DNA of 64,000 nucleotides from Dehalococcoidia bacterium (GTDB taxonomy: Bacteria > Chloroflexota > Dehalococcoidia > Plut-88900): positions 384,001-448,000 of the forward strand of contig CBDFLQ010000005.1 of assembly GCA_965249275.1 (NCBI GenBank), given 5' to 3'. The notes below the pieces were generated by a model. That model was not told the origin of the DNA. It saw nothing but the letters and a program-made list of their open reading frames with translations, and ran no database searches. Positions 1 through 51,782 of this stretch are shown piece by piece; positions within the stretch are counted from its first letter, which is position 1; each line of letters starts with the position of its first letter. Both the position numbers and the translations under genes were made by a program.

Positions 1-2
1 TC

Positions 3-173
3 GCATCAGGAGTGAACACCACCACTGTCACTAACTTCGCTACACCTCTATGGGCACTACAATTTGGTGACTGGTTATGGGAGAGAACGGGGGGCGAAAA
101 CATCACCCCAGAGACAGCACAGGCTCAACGGCAAGAATGGTCTCAGAACTTGGCAATCATTCCCACCGTCTAG
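3..173 (+). CDS. 3' end of a hypothetical ORF (partial), convergent with the IS1595 transposase; possible passenger gene
   Basis: Frame 3 is open from the window edge to TAG at 171-173 (...ATPLWALQFGDWLWERTGG...IIPTV*); the other + frames close early. Confidence 0.35.
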   Translation, partial: ASGVNTTTVTNFATPLWALQFGDWLWERTGGENITPETAQAQRQEWSQNLAIIPTV

Positions 174-1220: not shown

Positions 1221-1250
1221 TGGACACAATTTCAGTGGAAATAGTATCAT
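1221..1250 (+). promoter_or_regulatory. Divergent sigma70-type promoter for the ncRNA array
   Basis: TGGACA(1221-1226)-N18-TATCAT(1245-1250); predicted start at about 1256-1257 coincides with the first base of the first RNA stem. Confidence 0.55.
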
Positions 1251-1256
1251 ACGGAG

Positions 1257-1410
1257 GGCAGGGTACGCAAGGAATTTATGGCACCAGGAGGCACCAATGG
1301 TCCCCTATCGGGGAATGAAACTCAGCCGGCTCCACTTTGAATAGACGTTCTGCAAAAACGTCGTGGGGTTGGCTACAAGAAGGACATTTTAGACCCTTGC
1401 ATACCCTGCC
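1257..1410 (+). ncRNA. Structured ncRNA unit 1 (long closing stem, bubble/multiloop, inner stem)
   Basis: GGCAGGGTACGCAAGG (1257-1272) pairs with CCTTGCATACCCTGCC (1395-1410), 15/16; inner AGCCGGCTCCAC/GTGGGGTTGGCT 12 bp with G-U pairs; hairpins TCCCC-TATC-GGGGA and GACGTT/AACGTC. Confidence 0.65.
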
Positions 1411-1419
1411 AATACAACG

Positions 1420-1516
1420 TGAGAGGACATGCCTGTTGGTGCAGGCCAGAATTTGCCAAACTCTTGAGAACGTTGGCATATCCAACGTTGCGGTTCGATT
1501 CCGATCCTCTCCGCCA
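1420..1516 (+). tRNA. Non-canonical tRNA-like RNA (9/3 allo-tRNA-type fold), anticodon GCC, long variable arm
   Basis: Acceptor TGAGAGGAC/ATCCTCTCC then G-CCA; D arm GCCTGT-TGGT-GCAGGC; anticodon arm AGAAT-TTGCCAA-ACTCT; variable arm AACGTTGG-CATAT-CCAACGTT; T arm CGG-TTCGATT-CCG. Confidence 0.8.
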
Positions 1517-1542: not shown

Positions 1543-1660
1543 TGAGGGGAGTAGTGGTAATCCGGTAGACTCTCGATGTTCCCAACATCGGCATTGCTTA
1601 GGTAGTGTGTGTCAGACGCTGGCACAGAGTTTTTACAGAGGAACCATCTACTCTCCTTCA
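1543..1660 (+). ncRNA. Structured ncRNA unit 3: long stem capped by a four-way junction
   Basis: Outer TGAGGGGAGTAGTGGT/ACCATCTACTCTCCTTCA; GACTCT/AGAGTT closes three abutting 7-bp hairpins CGATGTT/AACATCG, GCATTGC/GTAGTGT and GTGTCAG/CTGGCAC. Confidence 0.7.
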
Positions 1661-1760: not shown

Positions 1761-1874
1761 TGGGAAACAAGATGGACGACCAGACATATGTCACTGTTGG
1801 AGGTTTGGCAAGACCTCCTTGATGAATTAGCGCTCGTGTTCAGCGTCGCTTCATATCTGGTCGTCCATCTCCCA
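1761..1874 (+). ncRNA. Structured ncRNA unit 5: long closing stem with internal hairpins
   Basis: AGATGGACGACCAGA (1770-1784) pairs with TCTGGTCGTCCATCT (1856-1870), perfect 15 bp; flanking TGGG/CCCA; internal GGAGGTTT/AGACCTCC and GCGCT/AGCGT. Confidence 0.65.
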
Positions 1875-1904
1875 CTGCTTGATGCCTTATTGTATATAAT
1901 TCCC

Positions 1905-2800
1905 TATTCTTTTATACGAAGAGCACTAATTTCATATTTAATACTCAATACATGCCTTACTCCAAAGAGCACATGGAGAAATTTTACTCCCACATCGATA
2001 AAGACGGCAGAAAGTACAGCACTGACAATTTGAGAAGCCCTGCACCCAGACCTAATTTGACTTACGAGTACAAGGGATACAAACCTCACCCCAATGGGTG
2101 GACAGTGTCACTTGAGAGAATGAAGCGACTCGACGCAGAGGGGCGTCTTCATTTTCCGAAAAAGAAGGACGGTCGAATCCGCATAAAGAAATTCCTTGAT
2201 GAAATGCCCGGCGTGCCTATGGGCAATATATGGGATGACATCAGACCTATCTCATCTCACTCTGAAGAACGCCTAGGCTACCCTACCCAGAAACCCTTGG
2301 CCCTGCTAGAACGCGTAATTAGGGCATCCACCAACGAGGGCGATCTAGTTTTGGACCCCTTTGCGGGTTGCGCCACGGCCTGTGTCGCAGCGGAGAAACT
2401 GAAACGGCAGTGGATCGGCATTGACGTGAGCGACCTTGCAGTCAAGCACGTCTTGGAGCGCATCCAGGATGGTTACAACCAGGGCGACTTCCCGGATATC
2501 CTTGAAACAGGGTTCCATCCCGACAAGGTGGATCACTTAGTTATCAGTGGGGAGGCACGCGCCCCGCGCTACCAAGACCGCAAGCCGGAGCTATACGTAC
2601 ACCAGAACGGCAGGTGTGCGGGCTGCCACCTCGAACTCCCGGAGCGCCTTCTGGCCGTGGACCATATTAAGCCGAGATCCAAGGGGGGCGCCGACGCTAT
2701 CGAAAACCTTCAACTCCTCTGCACTGACTGCAACTCCCGCAAAGGCAACCGGGACATGAAATACCTGTTGGAGTCCCTAAAGAGGGACGGAATAATTTAG
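1905..2800 (+). pseudogene. 5'-truncated N4/N6 DNA methyltransferase (beta class) fused to a C-terminal HNH endonuclease
   Basis: GYPTQKPLALLERVI, LVLDPFAGCAT and WIGID present but no DPPY/DPPF catalytic motif; the frame upstream of ATG 1952 reads FFYTKSTNFIFNTQY up to the IS end; C-terminal CAGC..VDHIKPRSKGG....NLQLLCTDCNSRKG. Confidence 0.8.
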
Positions 2801-11067: not shown

Positions 11068-13662
11068 CTAGGGAGTGACCTCGTACTCCAGCTCCACGAG
11101 CTTTCGGCCCTCGTTGTAGACGTGGAGCCGGTATTCCCCAGGCGCCCAGAGATCCGATGGTGATTGCCCTACTTGCAACCACCATGACCATAAGCTGCCG
11201 TTGTGTCGGGCGTCTGCAGTGAACGTCACGGTGCGGCGCCCGAATTCAAATCCGTCTTCGTAGTAGTGCACCAGCTCCAGGGGGACCTCCGTATTCGAAC
11301 CGACGTTATAGTCCCAGCGTAGCAGGAGCCAGAGGTAGTCGTCCACGGCCTCGGCGGAGATGCTGGTTAATGGCGTTCCTTCCTGAGTTGCGGACAAGTA
11401 AGCCGTGTGGATGCGTCCGTTGATGGTGCGGAGAATGGGATTGGTTCGGCCGATCTCTTGGTCGGAAGGGGCATAGGGTTCGGTTCCGTCATACCAGCGG
11501 GCGGCTATTGTCTCGACTATGGAAACATCTTCATCCTCATCGCCCTTAAAGGCAGTCCTGACGTGCTCTATCCCGACCTCCGTGTCATCCTGCATCTCAA
11601 CCTCGTCTTCGATTTGAGAGAGCAGATAGAGGTCTCGCAACCCTTCTCGGAAGCTGTCTTCGTCCAGATTGCGGTACAGGTCTACGAAGAGGCGTTCGCC
11701 CAGCGCATAGTTGCAGGTGAATGCACTGTCAGTGCCATCCTCGCTTGTGACGTCCAAGTTTTCCAATTCGGCGATAGTGCGCACATAGCCACAGGGGTCA
11801 TTGGTAACCTCTATAGACCCACCGGTACGAGCGTTTTCGGAGGTGGATGCCATGAAATCCGAGGCACCTTCGTCAACCCAATTGCTGTTGCCGCTCCAAT
11901 AGTAATGGGCTACTTCGTGAGCAACTAGCGAGCCGGCAAACTCCGCCTCATGACTTCCGTCATCGACATCGTATTTGGGCAGGGTGACGATATGCGTACC
12001 GTAGTAGTTGCCACCGAACGTTGGGGTTACAGCATCACCGACGAGCCAACCAACATAGTTGGTAGGAAAGGGGACACCCATGAACTCCTCGGCATGGAGT
12101 ACGGAGTGTTCCAGCAGTTCCATGCTTCGGTCTGCGCCTGGGCCTGTGCGGATGATGGCAAGGTCGGTCTCCCCGGCCAGGGGCAATTCGATGACGCGCT
12201 CTTCCAAGGTGACCTGATCAGGATCGAGCAGGGTATCGATTAGTATCGGGTTGGTGTCGCTAACTCCGTAGAGAGAGGCGACAATCTTGGCCCAGTCGTC
12301 GGTGATGCCGTCGCTGAGGGTCGGGTGGGAGAGGACGCGCTGGTAATCAGCTTGTCTAAACCACGCCATATCGACAAGGGATTCCAGGGCCGATACATCT
12401 GGCGGTTCAAGGGTTTCTAGGAAGGGCATGTCGACAATGCGCGATGCCTGCCCCTCGTTCTTATGCGAGAGATATGAGAGTTCTTCAAGCGCCTGTGCCT
12501 CCTGCTCCCCTATGCCCTCCTGGACCCATTCCAAGGCAACGACTGACAAAGCGACCTCTGCATCATTGAAGCCGCTGAACCAGTCAATCGCTTCAGCCTC
12601 TACGCCCGTAATGCCATCCTGCACCCAGCCCAACTCAACGACTGACGACGCAAGCCCTGCGTCGTCATTAGCGATGTAGGACAACTCTTGGATCGTCTTG
12701 ACTTCTATCTCTTCAATGCCATCCTGCACCCAGCTCAGGGCCACGACTGATGACGCAACCTCCTCATCACCAAAATTGTTCATCCAGCGAACTGCTTCAG
12801 CCTCCAAGTCTTCAATACCGTCATGCATCCAATCCAAATCGACGATGGATGAAACGACTGGACGGCTTGTCACTGCGATATACAACAAGTCCTGGATCAC
12901 CTCTGACTCTCTGGCATCAAGGCCATCTATAACCCAAGGCAATGATTTGATCTCCCTTGCCAAAGCAGGGCTGCCCTGGTCCAGCCAACGGGAGTTTACA
13001 AATCCATTCCAGACGGCCGCGGAGAACGGTGTGGGCGAAGGCGTAGGGCTAGGTGTGGGCGATGGGTCCGGGGCCGGAGTAGGCACGGGTGTTGGTGTGG
13101 GCGAGGGGGTAGGGCTAGGCGTGGGCGAGGGGGTAGGGCTAGGCGTGGGCGAGGGGGTAGGGCTAGGCGTGGGCGAGGGGGTAGGGCTAGGCGTGGGCGA
13201 GGGGGTAGGGCTAGGCGTGGGCGAGGGGGTAGGGCTAGGCGTGGGCGAGGGGGTAGGGCTAGGCGTGGGCGGCGGGGTAGGGCTAGGCGTGGGCGAGGGG
13301 GTAGGGCTAGGCGTGGGCGGCGGGATAGGGCTAAGCGTAGGCGAGGGAGTGGGGCTAGGTGTGGGCGAGGGTGTCGGGATTGGCGTGGGTGAGAGTGTCG
13401 GGCTCGGTGTAGGTACCGGCTCAGGGGTGGGTGCGGGGACGGGTGTCGGCGTGGGATTGGGCGTAGATATCGGGATGGACGTAGGTTCGGGTGTAGAAGC
13501 CGAGGTCGGGCCAGCTTGCACCGTGGCTTCAGTGATTGGCGTCGCCATGGCCGTCGGGGGTAGGGTTTGGGGGATGGTGGGCACGGGAGTGGGCAGCGTA
13601 CTTCGACATCCCATCAAAGCCACAAAGCTGATAAGAATCAATATCGATATATACAGTTTCAT
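11068..13662 (-). CDS. Lipoprotein with Pro/Thr/Ser linker, internal WxxDG repeats and a gluzincin metallopeptidase domain
   Basis: Lipobox LMGC; (SPTP)n linker; five roughly 35-aa repeats ([35 protein letters not shown]); [17 protein letters not shown]. Confidence 0.85.
13097..13312 (+). repeat. 24-bp tandem repeat encoding SPTPSPTP
   Basis: GTGGGCGAGGGGGTAGGGCTAGGC in 7 exact copies (13097-13264), one variant, one exact copy, degenerate flanks. Confidence 0.95.
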
Positions 13663-48498: not shown

Positions 48499-51632
<3,134 letters not shown>

Positions 51633-51707
51633 TGCATTATGACACGTGCAGAACGTTCTAATTCTCTATTCAACACAGCGGATCGGGCTCATACCCACCG
51701 CATATGA

Positions 51708-51782
51708 CGCGGGGTGGAGCAGTGGCAGCTCGTCGGGCTCATAACCCGAAGGTCGTTGGTTCGAATCCAACCCCCGCTACCA
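51708..51782 (+). tRNA. Initiator tRNA-fMet (CAT)
   Basis: Cloverleaf with C1:A72 mismatch, GGG/CCC anticodon stem, loop CTCATAA, TTCGAAT, encoded CCA. Confidence 0.96.

Follow-up and report, generated by a model that had tools for sequence, protein, structure and literature searches.

Can a transposon carry a tRNA that misreads the genetic code? The question is raised by a small gene, here called t3, at positions 1420-1516 of a 64,000-nucleotide (nt) stretch of DNA from a Dehalococcoidia bacterium of the phylum Chloroflexota (positions 384,001 to 448,000 of contig CBDFLQ010000005.1, assembly GCA_965249275.1; the whole stretch is called the window below). t3 places a glycine anticodon, GCC, on a body like that of serine and selenocysteine tRNAs (tRNA-Ser, tRNA-Sec). 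We find that t3 is a genuine member of the allo-tRNAs, and that it lies within the exact ends of a 3,800-bp transposon of the IS1595 family together with two further tRNA genes, t1 and t2, whose anticodons also disagree with their bodies. What such a gene might do is less certain; we tentatively suggest weak misreading of glycine codons as serine, and weigh this below against other explanations.

A tRNA-Sec-like fold with one ambiguous layer

The initial annotation of the window described t3 as an allo-tRNA of the 9/3 type, in which the D stem and variable arm are long and the T stem is short, and reading of the sequence together with folding recovers every arm that it listed (Table 1). The acceptor pairs are flanked by two mismatches, U1420.C1512 and C1428.A1504 (U1.C72 and C9.A). 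A third mismatch escaped the annotation: A1451.C1461 leaves only four pairs in the five-position anticodon stem (1448-1452 with 1460-1464). In all, 27 of the 31 modelled pairs are standard and the conserved loop motifs are all intact, with canonical T loop UUCGAUU, GG in the D loop, U33 and A37. In the minimum-free-energy fold (RNAfold) four helices appear, those of the acceptor, D, variable and T arms, and the anticodon stem does not form. Folding energy alone is weak support, with z = -2.13 and 6 of 200 shuffles folding equally well.

The acceptor/T branch has 12 layers, made up of nine stacked acceptor positions, two of them non-standard, and a 3-bp T stem. How the layers divide is less clear. 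The layer between the eight and the three can be counted as C9.A, a ninth acceptor layer, or as G.A, a fourth T-stem layer, and neither is standard. The 2-nt linker between acceptor and D arm favours 9/3; the consensus of 18 relatives (see below) is 8/4, and by that measure t3 has an extra C at position 9, counted as an insertion, and an A in place of the C required for a fourth T-stem pair. The label “9/3” reflects one way of counting a non-canonical layer; the choice between it and 8/4 is ambiguous.

t3 belongs to the allo-tRNAs

Standard searches pass over t3. ARAGORN at its default setting made a sole call in the window, a tRNA-Met, and t3 turned up only at the -ps85 setting, where relaxed thresholds are too noisy for use; Rfam at curated cut-offs returned 23S rRNA and tRNA-Met only. 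In a permissive scan of 351 nt, with the best match alone retained among same-clan overlaps, the tRNA-Sec family (RF01852) matched t3 at 34.6 bits (E 2.4e-5), below its gathering cut-off of 47, and no overlapping canonical-tRNA match (RF00005) outscored it. We also built a covariance model, R3, from 18 other allo-like tRNAs gathered in this analysis, with t3 excluded. Over the whole 64-kb window R3 matched t3 at 71.1 bits (E 2.6e-13), and its next best match, at 32.6 bits, was the ordinary tRNA-Met. The allo-tRNA model fits t3 far better than do those for tRNA-Sec or canonical tRNA, and because the folding-energy z is so small it is on these model scores that the membership of t3 rests.

The structure is conserved among relatives. 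In the 18 sequences without t3, 91.7% of cells are paired, against 66.4% after shuffling (0 of 500 shuffles reached the observed value) and 42-56% in shifted registers, and 25 of 31 pairs show compensatory changes on both sides, in an alignment that was fitted to the model's structure and so leans towards it. A five-sequence set that includes t3 gives 91.4% paired, with 20 of 31 pairs changing on both sides. The D, variable and T arms are thus preserved in homologues, with covarying pairs. The set behind these tests includes soil-metagenome UAU types matching the description of Mukai et al. from 2017 (PMC5389517). With its tRNA-Sec-like D arm, long variable arm, 12 layers, G73, encoded CCA and high R3 score, t3 is a genuine member of the allo-tRNA kind.

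The relatives differ mainly in what they would read. No close DNA copy of the t3 region (131 nt) exists in its own genome besides itself, and a comparison with 60 relatives gave short T-arm matches only. A seed covariance model built from t3 alone was run over 151 related genomes; the 15 top loci examined comprised three true tRNA-Sec, ten tRNA-Ser and two allo-like genes, one of 8/4 form with anticodon CAA in a genome of the same genus (G003), the other of 9/3-like form with GAG in one of the same family (G010). Later rounds added a second G010 gene (UAA), a gene in genome G286 (GAU) and three from another class of the phylum (UGG, UAG, GAU), so that anticodons vary (GCC, CAA, GAG, UAA, GAU, UGG, UAG) on a body that is kept. 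A pattern taken from the shared 3' part matched 24 metagenome contigs, many of them short, with at least four UAU-anticodon allo-tRNAs plus phage-like tRNA arrays with 8/4 tRNA-Ser; on one of the 24 a transposase fragment adjoins a UAU allo-tRNA. The survey also turned up a 97-nt tRNA-Sec-like gene in genome G128 (L161 1501-1597, minus strand) with a cysteine anticodon, GCA, and U73, which resembles the published selC* tRNA-Cys or a recoded tRNA-Sec.

We considered a canonical tRNA-Gly and rejected it. The glycyl-tRNA synthetase of Escherichia coli uses U73, C2:G71 and G3:C70, and a canonical tRNA-Gly is a 7/5 cloverleaf with a short variable loop. The host's tRNA-Gly(GCC) has U73 and C2:G71, whereas t3 has G73, G2:C71 and A3:U70 and receives no ARAGORN call. 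Its acceptor positions 2-7 and its 3' CCUCUCC-G-CCA (66-73 and CCA) are identical to those of host tRNA-Ser(GGA) and tRNA-Ser(CGA), which fits a serine identity. An encoded CCA is present in all 17 host tRNAs whose sequences were compared, of 44 called by ARAGORN in the whole genome.

Could t3 instead be the tRNA-Sec of the host (gene selC), or a variant of it used for recoding? tRNA-Sec is its best Rfam match, the host has both SelA (452.6 bits; C7:972781-973860) and SelB (C6:242184-242312), and a canonical tRNA-Sec was not found in the host assembly, where a neighbour's selC region also finds no match. The anticodon is nevertheless GCC instead of UCA, the branch has 12 layers instead of 13, and the 34.6 bits of t3 fall well below the roughly 66 of the family's true tRNA-Sec, a different sequence found in 10 of 12 family genomes (SelA is in 12 of 12). 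Because the assembly (2.9 Mb, 7 contigs) is 87% complete, selC is probably just unassembled, and its absence is most simply explained as an assembly gap. We regard a selC origin of t3 as very improbable.

t3 is cargo of an IS1595-family transposon

t3 sits 388 bp inside the right end of the transposon. Because it falls within boundaries set by terminal inverted repeats and an 8-bp target-site duplication, TATTCTTT, it is cargo. The element reads, from left to right, left repeat, ORF133 (-), t1 (+), DUF2188 (-), a small open reading frame (ORF) (-), t2 (+), ORF181 (+), transposase (-), t3 (+) and right repeat. The nearest named relative of the transposase is from a metagenome-assembled genome of the Tepidiformaceae (Chloroflexota). 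Its start is probably the ATG ending at 1106, which lies downstream of a promoter-like site at 1175-1147 (-), and relatives align from residue ~45-53. Known subgroups of the family include ISNha5, ISSod11 and ISNwi1.

The insertion split an N6/N4 DNA methylase-HNH gene. The 5' part of this gene (L031 7547-8104) covers positions 1-94 of the Pfam profile and the 3' part covers positions 132-216 plus HNH; removal in silico of the element and one copy of TATTCTTT yields a single open frame of 186 + 296 codons. The insertion looks recent, because the target duplication is perfect and the frame of the interrupted gene is still open. Other contigs confirm the assembly, and a 220-nt contig from a second study holds t1 without difference.

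Table 1. Features of the transposon and of t3. Positions are those of the window unless prefixed by L031 or C5.
Feature	Position	Strand	Details
Left inverted repeat, outside window	L031 8105-8137 (C5:382105-382137)		
t1, Leu-type class-II tRNA, Gly GCC anticodon	L031 8659-8747 (C5:382659-382747)	+	89 nt; Rfam tRNA 47.8 bits
t2, Leu-type class-II tRNA, Ala UGC anticodon	L031 9323-9411 (C5:383323-383411)	+	89 nt; Rfam tRNA 47.2 bits
ORF181, C-terminal end	1-173	+	whole ORF L031 9628-10173; N-terminal part appears hydrophobic by eye
IS1595-family transposase	189-1106 (longest ORF to 1250)	-	PF12762 DDE_Tnp_IS1595, E 2.3e-30; PF12760 Zn ribbon (N-terminal), E 4e-08
Sigma-70-like promoter match	1221-1250	+	TGGACA-18-TATCAT (10/12); 170 nt upstream of t3, divergent from transposase
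Putative 5' leader	1257-1410	+	closed by 16-nt inverted repeat 1257-1272 / 1395-1410, 94% complementary (L031 11257-11272 / 11395-11410)
t3, allo-tRNA-like gene	1420-1516	+	sequence, fold, RF01852 34.6 bits, model R3 71.1 bits
t3 acceptor stem	1420-1428 / 1504-1512		7 Watson-Crick pairs (G1421-A1427 with U1505-C1511)
t3 linker			AU, between acceptor and D arm
t3 D arm	1431-1446		6 pairs (1431-1436 with 1441-1446), last U.G; loop UGGU
t3 anticodon arm	1448-1464		loop UUGCCAA, GCC at 1455-1457
t3 variable arm	1469-1489		8 pairs (1469-1476 with 1482-1489); loop CAUAU (5 nt)
t3 T arm	1491-1503		stem CGG/CCG (1491-1493 with 1501-1503), loop UUCGAUU
t3 3' end	1513-1516		G1513 (G73), encoded CCA at 1514-1516
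Terminator-like hairpin, then T run	1608-1636	+	~90 nt past CCA of t3
Right terminal inverted repeat	1872-1904	.	33 nt, 91% complementary to left
Target-site duplication TATTCTTT	1905-1912	.	8 bp; other copy L031 8097-8104
Interrupted N6/N4 DNA methylase-HNH gene, 3' part	1913-2800	+	ORF called from 1952; open from 1913

The two other cargo tRNAs lie just outside the window and were not in the initial annotation. Both have A73-CCA, 3-bp D stems and fully paired stems throughout. Their identity to host tRNA-Leu genes is 72-75%, and the D arm of t2 is almost wholly that of host tRNA-Leu(GAG). Alanyl-tRNA synthetase requires G3:U70 in its tRNA; t2 has C3:G70, hence is without this pair, and U73 is absent from both t1 and t2. 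The host retains normal tRNA-Gly(GCC) and tRNA-Ala(UGC). All three cargo tRNAs appear, as far as their sequences tell, to combine a foreign anticodon with a body whose synthetase ignores the anticodon. The host genome gives one match to the N-domain of seryl-tRNA synthetase (SerRS), and one leucyl-tRNA synthetase (LeuRS) plus one weaker match in a 942-aa frame; a dedicated synthetase paralogue for the cargo tRNAs was looked for there and not found.

Among the other passengers, the DUF2188 protein (L031 8758-8985, minus strand) matches its Pfam family at E 4.8e-21 and the PADLOC phage-defence candidate PDC-S16 at E 5e-32; ORF133, ORF68 and ORF181 have no Pfam or PADLOC family match. Searches with the transposase gave three loci in a collection of genome contigs, none with a tRNA, and no match in a collection of metagenome contigs. 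The whole element, compared with plasmids and phages, gave one 89-nt plasmid match, to t2, and no phage match. In some short source-sample contigs (L031 8117/11892 and 8121/11888) the opening ~13-17 nt of the left repeat run on into the closing ~13-17 nt of the right one; in one case 15 further letters stand between the two. These joins may represent a tiny hairpin derivative, or one like a miniature inverted-repeat transposable element, or an excision footprint.

Related transposons carry other tRNA genes

Element DNA matched 36 of 401 genomes of the class, nearly always through the transposase segment. We fetched 40 matched places and screened them for the end motif and matching 8-bp repeats, which delimited 24 insertions representing 23 distinct elements of 1.4-4.2 kb, with group ends GGGAATTATATAC and 8-bp duplications. 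Five of the 23 bounded elements hold a tRNA-like gene by ARAGORN at default: the carrier of t1-t3; the element of G286, present as two identical 2,776-bp copies at different sites (L120 4070-6845 and L121 4083-6858; perfect duplications TATCTTTA and AAATGCAA), each with an 8/4 allo-tRNA(GAU); that of G290 (L060 7385-10441; perfect duplication TTTTATTT), with a Leu-type tRNA(CUC); and two with an odd 76-nt “Ala(GGC)” gene bearing U73 and an Arg-like gene with an 8-nt anticodon loop, respectively. The G286 and G290 tRNAs have fully paired anticodon stems. An element in G432 (L185 56-2725) holds an allo-tRNA(UGG); a target duplication was looked for around it and not found. A related element in G002 is without the 260-bp t2 segment and adjoins a Ser-type tRNA with anticodon UAA.

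Counted from the side of the tRNAs, four of eight distinct genomic allo-like loci (t3, G286, G432 and the second G010 gene) lie inside or at most 250 bp from an IS1595-family transposase; the other four (G003, G010a, G465, G513) have no IS1595 transposase within about 8-9 kb. The earlier suggestion that IS1595 elements are a vehicle for allo-tRNAs is, together with the position of t3 within repeats and duplication, strongly supported.

Arg-like tRNA-like genes stand beside IS1595 transposases at L144 2502-2575 (-) in G374 and L151 5363-5439 (-) in G356, the former with an 8-nt anticodon loop (GACG), the latter with an ACC anticodon and a broken anticodon stem. In the host itself, a related IS1595 transposase fragment (C5:103106-103330; 44% identity, one internal TAG) adjoins a Val-Arg-Leu-Val tRNA cluster (C5:102489-102900).

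A bolder reading of this recurrence would make the IS1595 group with GGGAATTATATAC ends, in what are probably Chloroflexota genomes, a dedicated vehicle for class-II tRNAs with mismatched body and anticodon, and the three genes described here a “mistranslation cassette” whose tRNAs are active and selected. The bodies would be Ser-type allo-tRNAs and Leu-type tRNAs, and the outputs would be Ser or Leu at Gly codons and Leu at Ala codons. The element might benefit from low-level misreading through an addiction or toxin function, or through proteome diversification under stress; the SelA-positive host could, moreover, convert the allo-tRNA to carry selenocysteine. We think it unlikely that this reading holds as a whole.

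The same elements bear on the opposite possibility, that t3 is a decaying hitch-hiker, a once-active 8/4 allo-tRNA now without function. The supposed disabling changes would be G1 to U, insertion of a C at position 9, a fourth T-stem pair no longer formed and the A.C of the anticodon stem, and it is precisely at these positions that t3 departs from the 8/4 consensus of its relatives. Cargo is gained and lost, as the G002 element without the t2 segment indicates; t3 falls below the Rfam tRNA-Sec cut-off and is missed by ARAGORN; and an allo-tRNA pseudogene overlapping a transposon-related ORF has already been described (PMC5389517). Most of t3 is nonetheless in good order, with all but four modelled pairs standard and its loop motifs intact, and the insertion looks recent. 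An A.C mismatch can form a wobble pair when protonated, and both A.C mismatches of t3 could do so. The U1.C layer is possibly shared with a G010 relative, and would then count as a trait, not as a defect, in a comparison that depends on the alignment and from which the energy fold differs. Decay is, on balance, decidedly unlikely.

Is t3 a working tRNA?

We tentatively favour, with a little less than even confidence, the reading that t3 is a mobile Ser-type missense tRNA of weak activity. It starts from what is directly supported: t3 folds as an allo-tRNA and belongs to that family, it sits inside mapped transposon ends beside other tRNA cargo, and tRNA cargo of this sort recurs in other genomes. 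Charging and expression are added to this as predictions from sequence. t3 would be transcribed from its own promoter (Table 1), and RNase P would cut at the 5' side of U1420, a position indicated alike by the 12-layer rule and by the GCCA end. The host's single SerRS would then recognise t3 by its Ser-like acceptor (G2:C71, A3:U70, G73) and its 8-bp variable arm and charge it, leaving the anticodon unread; in allo-tRNAs the SerRS elements are a long variable arm and G73 or U73. Charged t3 would decode GGC and GGU as Ser at a low level, in competition with host tRNA-Gly(GCC). There is precedent in E. coli, where 8/4 and 9/3 allo-tRNAs place Ser at Leu codons (PMC5389517).

Several observations weigh against such activity. 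The element contains 5 promoter-like sites, against 3.2 +/- 2.1 in shuffles, and 2 terminator-like sites, against 4.0 +/- 2.4, so that the former are not above chance and the latter not significant. t3 itself has three non-standard layers, U1.C72, C9.A (or G.A) and the A.C within the five-position anticodon stem. A 1:72 mismatch, known from initiator tRNA, weakens use by EF-Tu. Allo-tRNA(UAU) species carrying stem-destabilising changes failed to suppress in E. coli (0 of 6 tested; PMC5389517). GGC and GGU make up 25,727 of 505,158 codons (5.1%) in long host ORFs, and efficient activity of t3 would therefore do great harm. There is no avoidance of these codons in the transposon's own genes, where they account for 32 of 65 Gly codons compared with 56% in the host. 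Finally, t3 is single-copy in its genome and no relative found here has the same anticodon, GCC.

Opposite-strand promoter-like sites also occur just downstream of t2 (L031 9462-9433) and t3 (L031 11560-11533). They would yield antisense transcripts, and their number is not above that in shuffles.

If t3 does not decode, it may still be kept as a stable tRNA-like RNA that serves the transposon or a host interaction. It might act as an uncharged or poorly delivered binder of SerRS or SelA, as a decoy for a tRNA-directed toxin, or as a processing or regulatory signal beside the divergent transposase promoter. Conservation across relatives runs in this direction: pairing in the 18-sequence set is best kept in the acceptor and the T arm, at 97-98% of cells, and is looser in the anticodon stem (88%) and D stem (81.5%). 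The poor anticodon stems or odd loops of several transposon-borne genes (t3, G003, G002, L140, and L144 with its 8-nt loop) point the same way. The element also encodes the DUF2188 protein that matches a defence candidate. The host's SelA and SelB are of interest here, the long D stem of allo-tRNAs having been described as a SelA binding site (PMC7590224), and Mukai et al. put forward roles outside translation, connected with transposons and toxin-antitoxin systems (PMC5389517). Yet the canonical anticodon loop (U33, A37), encoded CCA and Ser-like acceptor of t3 suit a working tRNA, and a mimic has no obvious need of all of them; anticodon stems are intact in t1, t2 and the G286 and G290 tRNAs; and a partner protein for such a role is not identifiable among the element's genes. 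We consider a non-decoding role somewhat unlikely, and prefer weak misreading of glycine codons.

Two features of the surrounding genome may be recorded here. A HigB-like toxin gene paired with a helix-turn-helix antitoxin gene (L031 4296-4920) lies between recA (L031 1304-2344) and recX (L031 4928-5566). At 48499-51782 the window holds 23S rRNA followed by tRNA-Met, and no 5S rRNA match at Rfam cut-offs was found anywhere in the window.

Comparison with known systems

Allo-tRNAs as a kind are already known (PMC5389517). Their diverse anticodons and a loose link with transposons and toxin-antitoxin systems have likewise been published (PMC5389517, PMC7609411, PMC7590224), and UAU is the most abundant type according to Mukai et al. 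(PMC5389517). The 2017 description left their host role and spread open and did no more than note the mobile-element link. The locus described here is a clean case, an allo-tRNA within exact transposon ends beside two tRNAs expected to misread Gly and Ala codons, and it suggests that tRNAs capable of misreading codons are spread by transposons. Should even a few of these genes be active, transposons would transfer ready-made codon-misreading devices among bacteria, with consequences for the drift of genetic codes and for the hidden burden that insertion sequences impose. From the locus and its relatives one also gains a small collection of natural tRNA scaffolds that depend on SerRS or LeuRS and have defined ends.

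Against the literature consulted, several features are apparently new: proven carriage inside transposon ends, a Chloroflexota host, GCC on an allo-tRNA body, a cassette of three mismatched tRNAs, and Leu-type mismatched tRNAs as transposon passengers. Our literature search found no paper describing tRNA cargo in the IS1595 family, and a search of titles and abstracts on natural mistranslating tRNAs and on transposases found none linking both.

t3 resembles the allo-tRNAs described in 2017, for example the (9/3) allo-tRNA(UAA) of Silvibacterium bohemicum, in its 12-layer branch with long acceptor and short T stem, its tRNA-Sec-like long D stem and tetraloop, its long variable arm and G73, its non-Ser anticodon on a Ser-type body, and its mobile context, where the published genes have a mobile or toxin-antitoxin one. 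It differs from those published, as far as they are described in the main text, in the non-canonical acceptor/T layer, the U1.C72 top layer and the anticodon-stem mismatch. By the main text, too, the published 9/3 set has only Arg AGA/AGG, Leu and UAA types, where t3 has GCC, while the 8/4 set spans 35 codons; and the hosts named there for allo-tRNAs are Clostridia, Proteobacteria and Acidobacteria, where t3 is found in Chloroflexota (PMC5389517). The allo-tRNA(UAU) pseudogene of Edaphobacter strain C40 is like t3 in having base-pair disruptions and in lying physically with a transposon gene. It overlaps a transposon-related ORF, as the source describes it, whereas t3 lies within proven transposon ends, without overlap, between the transposase promoter region and the right repeat, in the company of two further tRNAs (PMC5389517).

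With bacterial tRNA-Sec (RF01852) t3 shares the 6-bp D stem, the 4-nt loop, the AU linker (also present in the family's own tRNA-Sec), the long variable arm and G73, and it differs in having 12 layers and not 13, in its GCC anticodon, in scoring well below the family cut-off, and in a sequence unrelated to the family's selC. The carrier, for its part, is like the IS1595 family as reviewed in the source consulted, with Zn ribbon and DDE_Tnp_IS1595 domains, terminal repeats, an 8-bp duplication, passengers and a size of more than 2 kb (PMC8101967). It differs in that its passengers are tRNA genes.

The nearest functional analogue, by comparison of what is reported for each system, is Streptomyces tRNA-ProX with its synthetase ProRSx. 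As in the cargo tRNAs, body identity and anticodon disagree in tRNA-ProX, which mistranslates sense codons (PMC11415595). tRNA-ProX has a dedicated synthetase paralogue, whereas the tRNAs described here have class-II bodies, are borne by a transposon, and occur in a host with one SerRS and one LeuRS (PMC11415595 for tRNA-ProX).

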